Below, one piece after another: positions 6,669 through 42,053 of a DNA stretch of 64,000 nucleotides (its first letter is position 1; every line of letters begins with the position of its first letter). The notes under the pieces are model-generated. The model saw nothing but the letters and a program-made list of their open reading frames with translations, was not told where the DNA came from and did no database searches. The DNA comes from an uncultured Candidatus Saccharibacteria bacterium (GTDB lineage Bacteria > Patescibacteriota > Minisyncoccia > UBA6257 > 2-01-FULL-56-20), in the NCBI GenBank assembly GCA_964456235.1, contig CAYWDX010000002.1, forward strand, positions 78,061-142,060, given 5' to 3'. The position numbers and the translations under genes are program-made.

Positions 6669-7705
6669 TGGATTTCTGGTGGTCGTTTATGCGAAACGGC
6701 GGTTGGCGGACCAGAGTGCCCGATGCGGAACGCAACGGCAAGAATCCCGTTCGTGGTTTTGAACGATTCGCGCAACCGATCATAGGCACGATCAATGATT
6801 TCTCGATCGAGCGCTGAAAAATGTGCTGCGTTTCCTAAGTTCGCTTGTTGCCATAAGAAAAGAACGCCGGTGATTAACTGAAATCCCAAGCCGAGTTTCG
6901 CCGCGCGCAACCAAATATTTTCCACCATCTTCCCCGCTTCAATAAAATCTTGGTCATTGTCTTTTACGGCGATCACGCCGATCAAGCCGGCCGATGAAAT
7001 CGTTTTCGCGTTTTCCTCATAAATTTTTTTAGGAATTTTTAATTTGGAAAGGAACTGCGCCGTCTTCCATTTTCTCAATAATTTGAAGATGGAAGATTTT
7101 GGCGGTTTCACCTCCATGGTTCGCACATATAAACCTTTGCGAGTCTTTTGATGCTCTTCTTCCCATAAAATTTCTTCGAAAAGGAGGCGGTGCAGCAGTT
7201 CATTTTGGAATGTAACGAGGATGTCGAACGCCAAATTTTCTGCCACCGGCTGCAGCTCCCCTTCAACGATCGAAAGCTCGCACGATGGGAATCGCTGAGC
7301 TTCTTCAAAGAGATATTTCTTGTCGTGCTCGCCGATCGGGGTTGTTTTAAAGGGGCGTCGGTTCGTGTGCCGATGAGAAATGGCCGAGGCCAAATTGTGA
7401 GTCACGACTTTTTCTGCCGGCCTCAATTCGAAGGAGGCAAAAACATTCCCGCCGGGAAACACGGTGACATGCGGCGCGAAACCTTGCTGGCGGGCCGCGA
7501 TTTCCATATTTTCAATAAGCGCTCCGTGAGCGACATAGGTGCCGCGATTTCGAAAATTCATCACCGCATGGTCGCGTTCGGGCAAACCAATCACATCAAT
7601 TTTGTTCCCGTTCCCGCGAACAGCAAACTTCCACGGCTGCGAATTGCTCCCCGACGGCGCCAGGTTCCCCGCCTCTATGATTGCCTGAATTTTTTCTTTT
7701 TGCAT
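6659..7705 (-). CDS. Tandem nitroreductase-family (FMN oxidoreductase-fold) protein
   Basis: 348 aa; nitroreductase signature APSGSNSQPWKF at the N-terminus and a second degenerate nitroreductase-like half. Overlaps the HK start by 10 nt. Confidence 0.75.
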   Translation of the reverse strand: MQKEKIQAIIEAGNLAPSGSNSQPWKFAVRGNGNKIDVIGLPERDHAVMNFRNRGTYVAHGALIENMEIAARQQGFAPHVTVFPGGNVFASFELRPAEKVVTHNLASAISHRHTNRRPFKTTPIGEHDKKYLFEEAQRFPSCELSIVEGELQPVAENLAFDILVTFQNELLHRLLFEEILWEEEHQKTRKGLYVRTMEVKPPKSSIFKLLRKWKTAQFLSKLKIPKKIYEENAKTISSAGLIGVIAVKDNDQDFIEAGKMVENIWLRAAKLGLGFQLITGVLFLWQQANLGNAAHFSALDREIIDRAYDRLRESFKTTNGILAVAFRIGHSGPPTAVSHKRPPEIQWE

Positions 7706-37315: not shown

Positions 37316-38077
37316 TTAATTAAGAGCGTAAACGATACTTACGGTGTCAGTAATATCTTCGGTGCCGGGCTGTATCGTCGGCGGAACCGGCGCGGAGCTC
37401 GCACCGCCCACCCCGAAATCCGCAGCCGCATAGTATCGCGGTCCAGGGATATAATTGTTTTCTGAAATGCTCACGATGCGGCCCAAAGAAACATGGGCAT
37501 CCGCCGCCATCGCTTTTGCCTCTTCGGCCGCCTTCGCAATAGCGTCAGCGCGCGCGGCCGAAAGCACTTTCGCATCATCCGCGAACGTGAAATTCACGCC
37601 GCCGATTTGGTTCGCGCCAAGCGGTGCGAGGCCGCCGAGCACCGAAGCCACCTTCGAAAGGTCCCGCACCTTCACCTGAACCGTTTGCGTGAGCGTGTAG
37701 CCCGTGATGTAATTCCGCATCGTGCTTTTATCCCACGAATAATTCGGCGAAAGATTGTAGCTCGTGGTCTTAATGTCATCATCAGCAACTCCCTGCGATT
37801 TCACAAACTGGAGAATCGCATTCATCTTCGTATTGTTGTTGTCGGAAAGGGTTTGCGGACTCTGGCCCTGCGTCACGACCGAGAAGGAAATTTCCGCGAG
37901 GTCAGGTGCCGCAGTCGTCTTCCCCTGTGCAGAAACCGTAATCGTATGGGCCGGATAGAACGCCTCGCCCCACTTATAAATCGTCGGCATCACAAAAAAT
38001 ATGAGATTAACAATCAGAGCCCCCAGGAAAACCGTGAGCAAAATCCAGAACCACTTTTTTATATCTGTGCTTTCCAT
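37316..38077 (-). CDS. SIMPL-domain protein (DUF541, 26-kDa periplasmic immunogenic protein family), TM-anchored
   Basis: 253 aa; N-terminal TM, then a SIMPL-like region (ITVSAQGKTTAAPDLAEISFSVVTQG...NYITGYTLTQTVQVKVRDL). Confidence 0.75.
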   Translation of the reverse strand: MESTDIKKWFWILLTVFLGALIVNLIFFVMPTIYKWGEAFYPAHTITVSAQGKTTAAPDLAEISFSVVTQGQSPQTLSDNNNTKMNAILQFVKSQGVADDDIKTTSYNLSPNYSWDKSTMRNYITGYTLTQTVQVKVRDLSKVASVLGGLAPLGANQIGGVNFTFADDAKVLSAARADAIAKAAEEAKAMAADAHVSLGRIVSISENNYIPGPRYYAAADFGVGGASSAPVPPTIQPGTEDITDTVSIVYALN

Positions 38078-38805
38078 AATATTTTTTTGAACTCGTTTGG
38101 TTTGGTGCTGGCGCCGCCGACGAGCGCGCCGTCTATTTCTTTATATTGTACATAATCGCCGATGTTCTTACCGTTCACGGAGCCGCCATAGAGAACGCGG
38201 GTGTGCGTCCTTCTCCTGATGACCCTTGCCATATGTAACGCGTCATCGGGCGTATCGTTACGACCCGTTCCAATAGCCCAGATCGGTTCATAGGCCACGA
38301 TCAGATTTTTTTTCTTTGCACCGGTGAGCGTGACGCCGGCTAAATCTTTTTTGAGCTGCCCTTCAACAAATTTTTTCGCGGCATTAATCCCCTTTTTACG
38401 GATCGCAAGGGGCTCACCGACGCAAAGGATCACGCGAAGCCCATCCGCGAGGGCAAGTTTCACTTTTTTATTGATCATCGCGTCCGTTTCGTGGAGCCAC
38501 TTGCGCCGCTCGGAGTGGCCAATGATGGCATACTTTACGCCGAGGCGTTTCAGCATGCGCGGCCCAACCTCGCTCGTAAACGGGCCTCGTTCCTTCCAGA
38601 AAACGTCTTGCGCGCCGATAACTACCCTGCGATTTTTACTGCGGCGATGGAGCGCCGCGATCTTCTCAAGAAAAATAAATGGCGGGCAGATTACCGTCTC
38701 CCCTTTTATTTTTCTGGCTGCCGCCACCGTTGCACGGTAAAGCTTCGCCGCCTGCGCCTCCGTGCGCGGATTTTCCTTCCAATTCGCCGCGATTAATTTC
38801 GGCAT
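38059..38805 (-). CDS. tpiA: Triosephosphate isomerase
   Basis: 248 aa; MPKLIAANWKEN..., IIGHSERR, AYEPIWAIGTG are canonical TIM motifs. Confidence 0.92.
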   Translation of the reverse strand: MPKLIAANWKENPRTEAQAAKLYRATVAAARKIKGETVICPPFIFLEKIAALHRRSKNRRVVIGAQDVFWKERGPFTSEVGPRMLKRLGVKYAIIGHSERRKWLHETDAMINKKVKLALADGLRVILCVGEPLAIRKKGINAAKKFVEGQLKKDLAGVTLTGAKKKNLIVAYEPIWAIGTGRNDTPDDALHMARVIRRRTHTRVLYGGSVNGKNIGDYVQYKEIDGALVGGASTKPNEFKKILWKAQI

Positions 38806-38895
38806 GAGGATTCGTCTAGTTTACCACGCCGCCTTGCTCGGACAGTTCCGCGGAGCTGTGGAGCTGCCGAAATTTGCATCCGGTTTATTACTTGT

Positions 38896-39059
38896 CAAAG
38901 GTAATGTTTTACCTACATAAACTACAGCCCCTGCTCCACAGCGGGGCGAGCATAGCATACCAGCAATTAAAACTCATTAAAAACACCAACGGCCGCTGAA
39001 GCGGCCGTTGGTGCGACAAGCAAATAATAAGCTGTAGTTCAACTTACATTACCTTTATG
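38896..39059. repeat. Imperfect ~30-bp inverted repeats flanking a ~100-bp core with an internal hairpin (MITE-like or recombination-site-like element)
   Basis: IR-L caaaggtaatgttttacctacataaactacagc (38896-38928) versus IR-R gctgtagttcaacttacattacctttatg (39031-39059). They share AAAGGTAATGT and AACTACAGC. The core hairpin is aacggccgc-tgaa-gcggccgtt. An outer 10-bp IR gctgtggagc (38846) / gctccacagc (38933) lies around it. Confidence 0.4.
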
Positions 39060-39121
39060 GATACGATAGCGCATAAAATATAGAAGTCAAGCGCAGTTTT
39101 AATGAATTTTTAATCGAAATA

Positions 39122-39189
39122 AATAAAAAGCGCCATTGTTTTGCCGAGAGCCCTTCCGAGTACTCGAGGCAAAACAATGCCGCTTTTTA
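39122..39189. terminator. Long bidirectional terminator-like hairpin
   Basis: AAAAA GCGCCATTGTTTTGCC ...loop... GGCAAAACAATGCCGC TTTTT. Confidence 0.45.
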
Positions 39190-39332
39190 TGGTACTCCGT
39201 CTCGGGGCGCATCTCGAACTCTGGATGACACGCTGGAAAAACTAATGCAGTATTTTGCTGCTCAAGACCGCCAAAGTAGCTTTGGCCTCGCGGGTTATGA
39301 AACTGGGGCATAACCCGCTTCCGCCTGTGGCA

Positions 39333-39361
39333 TTGACATATATCGCATTACGATATATAAT
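39333..39361 (+). promoter_or_regulatory. Perfect-consensus sigma70 promoter TTGACA-17-TATAAT with an embedded operator-like palindrome
   Basis: ttgaca 39333-39338; tataat 39356-39361. The spacer contains the palindrome TATATCG-cattA-CGATATA. Confidence 0.6.
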
Positions 39362-39394
39362 GCAGCCAGCCTTTTAAATCTACAAACATCTACT

Positions 39395-39447
39395 TTGAGA
39401 CGGGCGTTCTGTGAGCCAGCAACTGACTCCTAGAACGCTCGTCTCAA
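39395..39447 (+). promoter_or_regulatory. Stable 5'-UTR hairpin (15/16-bp stem, 21-nt loop) ahead of the GC-rich membrane-protein gene
   Basis: ttgagacgggcgttct (39395-39410) pairs with agaacgctcgtctcaa (39432-39447). The alternative GTG start at 39411 lies in the loop. A true AAGGAG SD is at 39492-39497. Confidence 0.4.
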
Positions 39448-39503
39448 TCAGGCGTGCCCAGTGCCCGCAAGGGCTCTTGGAATTTCTCCACAAGGAGTTC
39501 CCT

Positions 39504-40310
39504 ATGAAGACCAGTCACAAGGTTTTCCTGGCGTGCGCCTTCGGCGGGTTCATCGGCGCATTTGTCGCGCTGTGGCTCAGTCACTACGACTCACTCTTCG
39601 CGTTCGTGGGCTTCGCCATCGGCGGCTTCACGGGCTACTTGAGCTACAACATCCACGAGGTCATCGCGGCCATTCTGCAGGCGTGGGCGTCGGCGACGAA
39701 CTGGCGGCCGGACAAGGCGTGGTGGCGGATGTGCTGTCAGGAGCTGCTTCGCTACTATGGCTTCGCGCTGACGGTAGTCACCGGCGTCGCGATGTTCGTT
39801 TGTGGGGCTGCCTCTATTGCCGAGCCAAAATTTCCAGAAAATCTTTTGATGTTCGCTTGCATACTTGTCCTTTTCTGGACGACCGTCTTGGTCTCCGGGA
39901 TACCCCTGACTTTTTTCTGGAAGGACGGGGGAGTTCTGGAAATTCGGGCTTGGATGGGTCCAGTGCCAGACGTGAGCCCGTTCAAGTTTTACGGCTATAC
40001 GCTGCCCAAGTTCTTCCTCTGGATGGGGCTCAAGGCGCTCGCCACCCTGATCGGCGCTCTCGGTGTTTGTACGCCCGGCGCCACCATGGTGCTGTTCCGC
40101 TTCTTCCGGAATCTCATCCAACGGATCCATTCGGATGTTCGCGTCGTGTGCGCGGTGGATGCCATGCTCGGCGCCGTCGCCGGGTACTTCTTCCACGATC
40201 CGTGGGTCGGTGCTCTGATTGGCGGAGTGCTGGGGGTCTTGAACTATGAGATCCTCTCCATCCGCATCTTCAAGCTCGTACCGGCGACGCAGTCGATGTT
40301 CAGTCGCTAG
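39504..40310 (+). CDS. Hypothetical polytopic membrane protein (about 7 TM), visibly GC-richer than its neighbours
   Basis: The start is taken at the ATG at 39504 with AAGGAG 7 nt upstream (the ORF track starts at GTG 39411). Product MKTSHKVFLACAFGGFIGAFVALWL...; no recognised family. All six frames are open across it, consistent with high G+C. Confidence 0.6.
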   Translation: MKTSHKVFLACAFGGFIGAFVALWLSHYDSLFAFVGFAIGGFTGYLSYNIHEVIAAILQAWASATNWRPDKAWWRMCCQELLRYYGFALTVVTGVAMFVCGAASIAEPKFPENLLMFACILVLFWTTVLVSGIPLTFFWKDGGVLEIRAWMGPVPDVSPFKFYGYTLPKFFLWMGLKALATLIGALGVCTPGATMVLFRFFRNLIQRIHSDVRVVCAVDAMLGAVAGYFFHDPWVGALIGGVLGVLNYEILSIRIFKLVPATQSMFSR

Positions 40311-40331
40311 GTACGGGATATGCAGTTCACA

Positions 40332-40368
40332 GGCTCCTCCGAGTAATCGGCGGGGCCTTTTTCTTTTG
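40332..40368 (+). terminator. Intrinsic terminator after the GC-rich membrane-protein gene
   Basis: GGCTCCTCCG-agtaat-CGGCGGGGCC, followed by TTTTTCTTTTG. Confidence 0.55.
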
Positions 40369-40523
40369 TATATATAGGTAAAGGTCGTTAATAACGCTAC
40401 CTATATGAAACTCACTGACGAGGAGCTCGACAGATTCTTTGATGAATATTTTGCAATCCTCTTGGATATTGCACAGCGCTCCGTAAAGGAGGGGGGGCCA
40501 GGATCAAGACATCTAGCGCCCCG

Positions 40524-40540
40524 GTTCAAATCCCGATGGA
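40524..40540 (+). repeat. Inverted 17-bp copy of the tRNA-Glu T-loop/acceptor segment (GGTTCAAATCCCGATGG)
   Basis: Identical to the reverse complement of 40668-40684 inside the tRNA-Glu gene. The surrounding sequence does not fold into a tRNA. Confidence 0.45.
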
Positions 40541-40662
40541 GCCGATCAAAAACCCGTCTCCCCGTGCGGGTTCTTGGCCCGTCAAAAGAGTGCAGATCTA
40601 ATGGGCATTCCCAGAGCAAAAGATACATAAACCCGCGTGTGGGGCGCGGGTTCGAATCGGCG

Positions 40663-40737
40663 TACCGCCATCGGGATTTGAACCCGAGTTTTCGCCGTGA
40701 GAGGGCGACGTCCTAGGCCGGGCTAGACGATGACGGC
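40663..40737 (-). tRNA. tRNA-Glu (anticodon CTC)
   Basis: Acceptor GCCGTCA/TGGCGGT (two G-U pairs), D-stem GTCT/GGAC with an 11-nt D-loop, anticodon stem TCGCC/GGCGA with loop CTCTCAC (CTC), T-arm TCGGG-TTCAAAT-CCCGA, discriminator A. The 5' end overlaps the last ~8 codons of murF. Confidence 0.65.
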
Positions 40738-42053
40738 TCTATATATTTTATTTCCGCAACCACCTTATCAAGCTCCATCGCGTGCGAACCCTTCACGAGC
40801 ACAAGGTCGCCGCGGCGCATCATCTCGCGAAGCGGTACGCCCGCTTCGCCTGCTGTTTCGTACGAAAAAATATTGGCGGGTTTGATGCGCGATTTTCGCG
40901 CGGCGTCCGCGATGAATTTCGCGCGCGGCCCCACGGTCACCACAACGTCGGCGATCCGAGCAGCGATGCGGCCAATTTCCTCATGCGCTTCGGGCGTATA
41001 CTTCCCAATCTCGAGCATGTCGCCGAGGACGGCGATGCGGCGGGTCGCGGGGAGATCGCGGAGCGTCTCGAGCGCGGCGCGCATGGAGAGCGGGCTCGCG
41101 TTGTACGAGTCATCGATCACCGCGGCAAACTTCACACCCGGCAAAAGCTGCATGCGCGAAGCGGCTGACTGATAATGCGCGAGGGCTTCCGCAATCTTAA
41201 CGAGGTTCATACCGAAAATCAAACCGATTGCGCCCGCGGCGGCGGCGGCGTACCCGTGCGCTTTTCCAAAAACGCCTTCGATTTTCACCGGGACAGAACT
41301 ACCTCCATATTCCAGCTTGAACGCGATGCCGCGCGGAATTTCGCCGACGCGCGATTCGTCGTCGCTTTTTTCTGTCCAGTTTTCAAAACGCGCCACGCGC
41401 ACGGCGACTCCCTTCTCGAAACCGTACGAGACGACGCGGGCTCGCGTGCGCGGCGCGAGATCAGCCACACGTTCGTCGTCGCCATTCAGCACGGCGAAGC
41501 CCGATGACGAAAGAGTTTCAATGAGTCGGGCCTTTTCGCGCGCGACCTCTTCGGGGCCCGCGTAAAATTCGACATGCACGGGCGTGTCGCCAATCGCCGT
41601 GATCACGCTCACGTTTGGACGCACGATCCGCAGGAGCGCGCGGATGTCCCCCGGCCGGTCAGCGCCATATTCAAGCACGAGAATTTCTGGATAGCGGCCG
41701 TCGCGCTTGATAAGACGCCAGGTTGATGCGACGAGCACCTTTGCCCAAAAGAAAAATTTGCGCGCTCGAGCGGTCCCGGCCGGCGTTTCGCGACTCACGA
41801 GCGCAAGTTCGCGCGGAGACCAGTCGCCAAGGATGGCGAGCGGCAGACCAAGATCATTGTTAAGGTTCCCCGAGGAAACCCGGACGCGGCGGACGGCACG
41901 AAGGACGCTCGCGATCGCAATCTTGGTTGACGTTTTGCCCACGCTCCCCGTCACCCCGACCACGCCCGGCCGGTAGCGCGCAATGGTAAGGCGCGCAAGC
42001 ACGCGCACGCTCCCTCGCAATATGTTTATTAAATATTTATTAAAACCTCCCAT
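40713..42053 (-). CDS. murF: UDP-N-acetylmuramoyl-tripeptide--D-alanyl-D-alanine ligase
   Basis: 446 aa; Mur ligase P-loop GVTGSVGKTSTK, central and C-terminal Mur ligase domains. Confidence 0.85.
   Translation of the reverse strand: MGGFNKYLINILRGSVRVLARLTIARYRPGVVGVTGSVGKTSTKIAIASVLRAVRRVRVSSGNLNNDLGLPLAILGDWSPRELALVSRETPAGTARARKFFFWAKVLVASTWRLIKRDGRYPEILVLEYGADRPGDIRALLRIVRPNVSVITAIGDTPVHVEFYAGPEEVAREKARLIETLSSSGFAVLNGDDERVADLAPRTRARVVSYGFEKGVAVRVARFENWTEKSDDESRVGEIPRGIAFKLEYGGSSVPVKIEGVFGKAHGYAAAAAGAIGLIFGMNLVKIAEALAHYQSAASRMQLLPGVKFAAVIDDSYNASPLSMRAALETLRDLPATRRIAVLGDMLEIGKYTPEAHEEIGRIAARIADVVVTVGPRAKFIADAARKSRIKPANIFSYETAGEAGVPLREMMRRGDLVLVKGSHAMELDKVVAEIKYIEPSSSSPA

Follow-up and report, generated by a model that had tools for sequence, protein, structure and literature searches.

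The interval between tpiA and a tRNA-Glu(CTC) gene (38806-40662) in a 64,000-nucleotide stretch of DNA from an uncultured Candidatus Saccharibacteria bacterium, hereafter the window, had been taken in a preliminary description for the scar of a tRNA-targeted insertion. Our analysis leads to a different anatomy. We propose, with a probability of roughly 60%, that the interval is a variable slot composed of three layers: a native leader unit upstream of tpiA, native elements on the 3′ side of tRNA-Glu and, between the two, a lineage-specific insert carrying the gene for a polytopic membrane protein. The first two layers are conserved in relatives while the third differs from one relative to the next, and this third layer appears to have been acquired. 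The earlier reading holds as far as the variable content beside a tRNA gene and the autonomous cargo gene are concerned, but its boundaries do not: the insert amounts to only about 1.4 kb (about 39116-40519, as obtained by subtraction) and its flanks appear to be native. The slot is bordered by tpiA itself (38059-38805, minus strand; Pfam TIM, E = 5.5e-71) as conserved flank and by tRNA-Glu (40662-40737, minus strand; Rfam tRNA, 54.5 bits) as conserved anchor, with variable DNA on the 3′ side of the tRNA.

The variable nature of the slot is apparent from comparison with loci of other genomes, which are designated here by L-numbers (L007, L012 and so on to L181). Among relatives, the order PBP gene, murF, tRNA-Glu, gap, tpiA, SIMPL, GtrA and murB is kept. 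The gap varies in length between 683 bp and about 10 kb (L015, 683 bp; L181, ~1.0 kb; L012, 1555 bp; L180, 1.7 kb; L016, 2773 bp; L177, 3 kb; L013, 3776 bp; L098, 3946 bp; L097, 4311 bp; L174/L179, ~10 kb) and its content is unrelated from relative to relative and never repeated. It includes a 368-amino-acid membrane protein in L012, several hypothetical open reading frames (ORFs) in L013, an Exo_endo_phos protein in L180, a 214-amino-acid hypothetical protein in L181, a Ser-hydrolase, a NUDIX protein and a DUF4258/DUF2283 pair in L177, and HigB, an M78 peptidase, P4 cII and an IS256-type transposase in L174/L179. In L173 and L014, two loci where tRNA-Glu is out of view, the sequence upstream of tpiA encodes methyltransferases and, by its ORF sequences, a HicAB-like pair, respectively. 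In about 15 relatives that share these flanks, the slot contains no homologue of the membrane protein of the window, as determined by tblastn and from gene lists.

That the flanking genes stay in order while each relative has a gap of its own length and content supports the view that the stretch from tRNA-Glu(CUC) to tpiA is a slot that varies across the clade, a hot spot for lineage-specific DNA. Comparison of the tpiA-murF interval with related genomes, which the preliminary description had proposed as a check, shows variable content between conserved flanks, within a set of distant relatives. The window reads as the genome of a member of the Patescibacteria (Paceibacteria/Liptonbacteria-like), with metagenome-assembled genomes (MAGs) of "Minisyncoccia" and "Paceibacterota" as its nearest species representatives. 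In a collection of 5.8 billion proteins the closest relatives share at most 67% identity in tpiA and 71% in murF, so that only distant comparisons are possible. No integrase family was found in the gaps annotated with Pfam (window, L173, L174/L179, L176, L177, L180 and L181), in agreement with the earlier statement that the 38806-40662 interval lacks an integrase; the gaps of L012-L016, L083, L097 and L098 were covered by ORF translations at most, without Pfam annotation. The sole mobility gene seen in any gap is the IS256-type transposase of L174. In L083, tRNA-Glu (7481-7556) is inverted relative to murF and tpiA and the variable genes still lie 3′ of the tRNA, which suggests an inversion of the segment comprising the tRNA and its island.

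The insert of the window is a self-contained transcription unit, oriented oppositely to its surroundings (47 of the 53 scored genes in the window are on the minus strand), with terminators insulating it on either side. At its tpiA-side edge lies a bidirectional, terminator-like hairpin with an A run, a stem and a T run (39123-39190), whose 28-nt arms are 89% complementary. Three small hairpins on the plus strand (39247-39261, 39270-39286 and 39290-39318) lie upstream of a sigma-70 promoter, TTGACA-17-TATAAT, with a perfect 12/12 match (39333-39361, plus strand) and an operator-like palindrome, ATATATCG/CGATATAT, in the spacer between −35 and −10. The 5′ untranslated region (UTR; 39368-39503, plus strand) is strongly structured (whole-UTR fold z = −4.3 against shuffles) and includes a long hairpin with 25-nt arms (39395-39447), a small one (~39460-39478) and a third (39479-39501) which, in the predicted fold, pairs with the AAGGAG ribosome-binding site (39492-39497). 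The gene (39504-40310, plus strand) is followed by an intrinsic terminator (40332-40367, plus strand) with a stem of 11 positions, 10 of them paired, a GUAA loop and a U run. The long A-stem-T hairpin, the further hairpins around 39245-39296, the consensus promoter, the structured 5′ UTR and the terminator had all been noticed previously and all were recovered.

The combination of a consensus promoter with an operator-like palindrome and a buried ribosome-binding site suggests that the gene may be tightly repressed and its product harmful in excess; the 5′ UTR, by hiding the ribosome-binding site, would hold translation in check. Single genes with their own promoter and terminator located inside foreign or variable DNA are known as morons. 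The gene of the window resembles these in standing alone with its own consensus promoter and terminators and in being oriented against its neighbours. Unlike morons, it lies outside a prophage, and the palindrome and the UTR point to tight rather than constitutive control.

Downstream of the terminator, a short plus-strand ORF starting with MKLTDEELDRFFDEYFAILLDIAQRSVKE extends from 40405 to 40716 (40405-40520 before it runs into the tRNA fragment described below). It has no family match and no homologue in any comparison locus, and is probably a truncated remnant or no gene at all. An inverted repeat around the cargo (38908-38927 and 40363-40382, 80% over 20 nt) was also considered and proved no better than the chance pairs listed with it.

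The 268-amino-acid product, with about ten predicted helices, has no significant match in Pfam, NCBIfam, PHROGs, PADLOC or the PDB sequences, which confirms its earlier description as a polytopic protein of no recognisable family. The best Pfam E-value, 0.017, fails the cut-off, the best family match (Gly-zipper_YMGG) scores 15 bits against a cut-off of 28.9, and fold searches, including PDB folds, returned only generic helical matches. Homologues are nevertheless numerous: a word-indexed search gave 13 and an exhaustive profile search 1,793 clusters at 50% identity, of which 727 have E ≤ 1e-30. Among the 150 clusters listed, the proteins are 233-312 amino acids long and all are named "hypothetical protein"; one is from a Patescibacteria MAG. 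Conservation concentrates in the ~65 residues at the N terminus and at the C terminus, and the middle is free to vary. H209, R213, C216, D219 and N247 are invariant, E249 is nearly so, and glycine-zipper-like motifs are present. In the AlphaFold model, confidence is high only at the two termini.

Homologue loci that were inspected have unrelated neighbours, and in these a promoter-like site of the gene's own is present in three of four and a downstream terminator-like hairpin in all four; one homologue elsewhere adjoins transposase fragments. The homologue in L007, with 33% protein identity, shares with the window the promoter block (TTGACATAT...GATATAT; L007 ~2542-2570) and the base of the UTR hairpin. 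At this protein identity, retention of the promoter block implies that this DNA is better conserved than the middle third of the protein, and the shared promoter and UTR base suggest that gene and control region were inherited or moved as one unit.

On the other side of the insert, the tRNA-proximal ~140 bp (about 40520-40661) appear from the comparison to be conserved native DNA, neither cargo nor scar. The preliminary description had pointed to an exact inverted 17-bp copy of the T-loop/acceptor segment of tRNA-Glu close to the tRNA, and the inverted-repeat search retrieved it at 40523-40539 (counterpart 40668-40684), 122 bp from the tRNA; its estimated chance expectation within ±1.6 kb is ~2e-5. 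Within 1.6 kb, the window contains no direct match to the tRNA-Glu 3′ end that reaches 12 nt. In a listing of tRNA genes and their surroundings, copies of the tRNA 3′ end were found downstream of 10 of 12 tRNA-Glu(CTC) genes versus 1 of 30 other tRNAs, and never upstream. Relatives do possess direct copies, which comprise the last 16-18 nt of tRNA-Glu and start in the T-loop; these copies adjoin the tRNA, and the variable genes lie mostly beyond them.

These copies frame a structured module. In relatives, it is a four-helix element of ~130 nt (longer in L099 and L112), which is composed, in order, of an inverted T-arm copy (GGAUUYGAAC), an invariant GGGUCGG, hairpins P2, P3 and P4, GUGA, and a terminal direct copy of the last 12-18 nt of the tRNA. 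The inverted and direct T-arm/3′-end copies form the closing helix P1, which tracks the T-arm of each genome's own tRNA. P3 (AACC-GAGR-GGUU) is near-invariant. Sequences of helices P2-P4 differ among loci while pairing is kept in L012, L013, L083, L098, L099, L173, L174 and L180. The sample comprises about ten copies, located at L012 6595-6736, L013 4260-4410, L083 ~7390-7520 (minus strand), L098 5400-5555, L099 25-310, L112 1215-1390, L174 8855-8980 and L180 11540-11665, with variants at L173 7215-7320 and L177 6130-6270; the module is intact in at least seven relatives. The module has no Rfam family at E up to 10, where only tRNA matches pass the threshold.

In the window, a relic of the 5′ strand of the module (40515-40543, minus strand) remains: similarity to the intact modules stops ~20 nt in and the sequence beyond is unrelated. 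The position of cargo relative to the module varies, lying between tRNA-Glu and the module in L098 and L174 and beyond it in L012 and L013. The intact module of L180 directly abuts part A of the leader unit (see below), so that the uninterrupted layout was likely tRNA-Glu, long-stem element, module, leader unit or units, and tpiA. On the evidence of these alignments, the inverted 17-mer is a decayed remnant of a conserved structured module and not an att (attachment site) scar, since the latter is expected to take the form of a direct repeat at the island's distal end. The module may act as an RNA or as a DNA recombination site such as a folded att-like site.

Other readings of the module were examined and rejected. 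Its single match in viral contigs (L172) proved to be a real but truncated tRNA, encoded on the opposite strand of a contig of phage-like character, and is treated as a chance match. A TnpB/omega-RNA-like arrangement is contradicted by L098, where the 1.35 kb between tRNA-Glu and the module encodes a receiver-domain protein and not TnpB or IscB. Finally, the module is not an opposite-strand tRNA, as the T-stem fails to pair.

Between the module relic and the tRNA, directly 3′ of tRNA-Glu, is a long-stem element (40541-40661, minus strand) closed by GCCGAUU.../...GAUCGGC. It contains terminator-like hairpins at 40629-40653 and 40546-40575, with a fold z of only −1.9. Stems of ~20-25 bp around 60-85 GC-rich nt also occur 3′ of tRNA-Glu in L012 (6446-6590), L177 (6011-6130), L180 (11392-11530) and L181 (11369-11510), and that of the window is weaker than the versions of the relatives. 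The element could represent a complex of terminators, some other RNA or an inserted element of small size.

The insert would have entered by recombination in or near the T-arm-derived module, through an element using a recombinase encoded elsewhere or, alternatively, by illegitimate recombination, and its arrival would have removed the distal ~105 nt of the module. Several observations weigh against the three-layer reading with an acquired insert. Direct repeats and a target-site duplication around the insert are lacking, as is an integrase. No relative is closer than 67% in tpiA or 71% in murF, as a short-distance test of presence or absence would require, and at such distances differential loss could equally yield different gap contents. 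The protein family is present in Patescibacteria, so that an origin within the phylum, or even a vertical one, is possible. Codon-usage likelihood of the ORF is ordinary (rank 29 of 53 genes). Transcripts, RNA-RNA pairing and repression of the gene are predictions.

Composition had been one of the initial grounds for suspecting acquisition, the gene having been judged GC-rich by eye, and this proved true only in part. GC at third codon positions (0.78; mean 0.63 ± 0.07) is the highest of the 53 genes. Overall GC, 0.59, compares with a gene mean of 0.54 ± 0.03 (54% for the whole window) and is below that of murF, 0.61; codon usage, as noted, is ordinary.

These reservations feed the rival explanation that survives best, in which nothing was acquired: the membrane gene and the RNA elements would be ancestral, and relatives would differ by loss and drift. 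Host-like codon usage, the presence of the family in Patescibacteria, the great distance of the nearest relatives and the absence of mobility genes are all in its favour. We nevertheless consider it unlikely. None of the ~15 same-flank relatives carries a homologue of the gene in the slot, homologues elsewhere occur in unrelated contexts, in one case beside transposase fragments, the gene is on the strand opposite to that shared by most genes of the window, and it interrupts a module which relatives retain intact.

A second rival returns to the preliminary description and holds that the whole of 38806-40662 is the scar of one tRNA-targeted integrative element which has lost its tyrosine integrase, the repeats and the tRNA fragment representing its ends. 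The island indeed lies on the 3′ side of a tRNA and relatives carry downstream direct copies of the tRNA-Glu 3′ end. Islands integrated in tRNA genes can be recognised by the regenerated tRNA gene and the displaced fragment that accompany them (PMC4383910), a pattern which the copies in relatives match and which favours this explanation, as does the ~10 kb island of L174 (HigB, P4 cII, transposase) between tRNA-Glu and the module. However, the fragment of the window is inverted, belongs to a conserved module and lies 122 bp from the tRNA instead of forming a direct repeat at the far end, so that a simple att-scar reading is not supported. Moreover, the 310 bp beside tpiA are conserved in relatives, the variable genes of L012 and L013 lie outside the bracket formed by the tRNA and its direct copy, the Pfam-annotated gaps lack an integrase family, and the bracketed DNA keeps its helix pairing despite sequence change, as a decaying scar would not. 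We therefore regard this explanation as distinctly improbable.

The wider comparison with Islander-type tRNA islands (PMC4383910) is similarly divided. The slot shares with them lineage-specific genes 3′ of a tRNA, displaced tRNA 3′ copies which start in the T-loop in relatives, and contents such as toxin-antitoxin pairs, methylases and a transposase. It differs in the lack of an integrase family in the annotated gaps, in the lack of a bounding direct repeat in the window, and in that its tRNA-derived repeats are built into a conserved four-helix structure and are not simple att sites.

The layer next to tpiA (38806-39115) appears likewise to be conserved native DNA and neither cargo nor scar, because a ~280-nt unit (39114-38837, minus strand), delimited by nhmmer and by alignment with the L177 and L180 copies, recurs in relatives and is complementary in each case to its own tRNA-like sequence. 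According to nhmmer, one copy of this leader unit is present in the window, two in L180 (11674-11950 and 12711-12987) and two in L177 (6281-6562 and 7154-7429), giving a sample of five full units only, whereas part A alone is found directly upstream of tpiA in L173 (8793-8962) and L012 (7895-7953). The two units of L180 flank the Exo_endo_phos gene, and the second is located 47 nt upstream of tpiA, as in the window.

Part A (38965-39114, minus strand; nhmmer E = 8.5e-72, fold z = −6.8) has no Rfam family at E up to 10. On the minus strand it comprises, in order, an AT-rich UP-like box, a promoter-like site identified by promoter scan (TTGACT-16-TATCGT, 39090-39063), a small structured RNA, and a strong 14-bp terminator hairpin (38983-39014) followed by a U run, the U-rich tail being conserved. 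This hairpin is the terminator-like structure which had been seen between the arms of the inverted repeats. Part B consists of an outer stem, a tRNA-shaped RNA (38859-38931, minus strand; Rfam tRNA, 41.2 bits against a gathering threshold of 29) and a 3′ hairpin. The latter, a palindrome directly 3′ of the tRNA-like sequence (38842-38859, minus strand), was identified by inverted-repeat search and in the alignments, and its counterpart is GGCACGGCCGUGCC in three of the four copies of L177 and L180. A tandem duplication, CAGCTCCA followed by CAGCTCCG, is present at 38850-38866, at the 3′ end of the tRNA-like sequence, and forms part of the outer stem and of the 3′ hairpin.

The tRNA-like sequence of the window folds as a class-I cloverleaf with a UGA anticodon, C37, a C31.A39 mismatch, G3.U70, A73, the T-loop UGCAAAU, a 4-nt variable region and 42% GC. 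ARAGORN misses it at the default threshold and, when relaxed, reports a 74-nt tRNA-Ser(tga) without a long variable arm. Across the five copies, 90.5% of the alignment cells of the cloverleaf are paired and both-side changes occur in 9 of 21 pairs; the observed covariation score is reached by none of 500 shuffles and slid controls are far lower. Anticodons across the copies are UGA, CGA and UAG. C37-A38 and the C31.A39 mismatch recur, G3.U70 with A73 is found in four of the five copies and a non-canonical T-loop in two. G3.U70 together with A73 constitutes the classical alanine identity set. In the second unit of L177, ARAGORN calls a tRNA-Leu(tag) of 74 nt without a long arm at 7344-7419, and the same segment gives a partial match to the Rfam model for transfer-messenger RNA (25 bits, below threshold).

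Like canonical tRNA-Ser, the tRNA-like RNA has a full cloverleaf scoring above the Rfam threshold and anticodons of Ser (UGA, CGA) or Leu (UAG) type. Unlike an elongator tRNA-Ser, it lacks the long arm and a canonical T-loop, has C37 in place of a purine, contains the conserved C31.A39 mismatch, and is preceded by a complementary small RNA within a leader located before protein genes. Canonical class-II tRNA-Ser genes coexist with it.

In each unit, three segments of part A (in the window, a, 39046-39057; b, 39029-39041; c, 39014-39023) are complementary to the unit's own tRNA-like sequence, G.U pairs being allowed, and the complementarity to the small RNA of part A covers the 5′ two-thirds of the tRNA-like sequence. 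Segment c, just 5′ of the terminator, changes together with the anticodon arm: the pair is CUUGUC/GACAAG in most copies, and GUUUGCUA versus UAGCAAAC in the second L177 unit. Pairing of segment c is cognate-specific in the three most divergent units.

The inverted repeats of the earlier description therefore reflect this conserved pairing, probably at the RNA level. That they (38897-38928 and 39031-39056) should be the ends of a miniature inverted-repeat transposable element (MITE), a non-autonomous transposon, is scarcely credible: an imperfect repeat of ~26-32 bp does enclose ~100 bp with a hairpin, but only the original arms were recovered when further copies were sought in the 64 kb at up to 3 mismatches, the tRNA-like arm segments are unmatched in the viral collection, one arm is the 5′ half of the tRNA-like sequence within a cloverleaf with covarying helices and the other (39031-39056) belongs to part A, the pairing tolerates G.U, L177 and L180 have this arrangement in synteny, the arms are broken by a D-loop deletion, and no target-site duplication was seen.

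A bolder proposal, to which we give little weight, is that the unit represents an undescribed RNA system in which a small terminated RNA pairs, by way of three co-varying segments, with a downstream tRNA-shaped RNA that combines the alanine identity marks with Ser or Leu anticodons. Under this proposal, the unit could be a leader or attenuator which uses a tRNA mimic, or the tRNA-like RNA could be a controlled, potentially mistranslating tRNA held by its antisense partner, and the unit and the T-arm module may mark the cassette boundaries of an integrase-less exchange slot of Patescibacteria.

Beyond tRNA-Glu lies murF (40713-42053, minus strand), with the PBP gene further out. The listed murF frame overlaps the 5′ end of tRNA-Glu by 25 nt (40713-40737), and the public gene call, with a different start, is 429 amino acids long instead of the listed 446. 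Between the PBP gene and tRNA-Glu, murF is present in the window and in other relatives and is missing in the closest tpiA relative, L012 (4719-6445; also in L092).

A variable slot adjacent to a tRNA gene is familiar; the unexpected part is that conserved tRNA-derived RNA elements frame it, elements seen complete only in relatives and, in the window, in the tpiA leader. In the streamlined genome of Prochlorococcus, flexible genes are located in islands at fixed tRNA genes, and these islands, like the slot, contain partial tRNAs, degraded remnants and "island genes" outside any functional element (bioRxiv 10.1101/2020.12.28.424599). Their tycheposons belong to another taxon and carry tyrosine recombinases and replication genes, none of which were seen here, and the present slot is far smaller.

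The tiny genome of this member of the Patescibacteria thus has a fixed slot at one tRNA gene where accessory genes turn over with no recombinase visible, resembling the tRNA-anchored islands of other streamlined bacteria. The cargo belongs to a family of ~1,800 clusters of wholly uncharacterised membrane proteins, of which the member in the window is under predicted and unusually tight control. If the RNA elements act in recombination or regulation, they would offer a concrete way to study how genes are exchanged and controlled through RNA in this uncultivated phylum.

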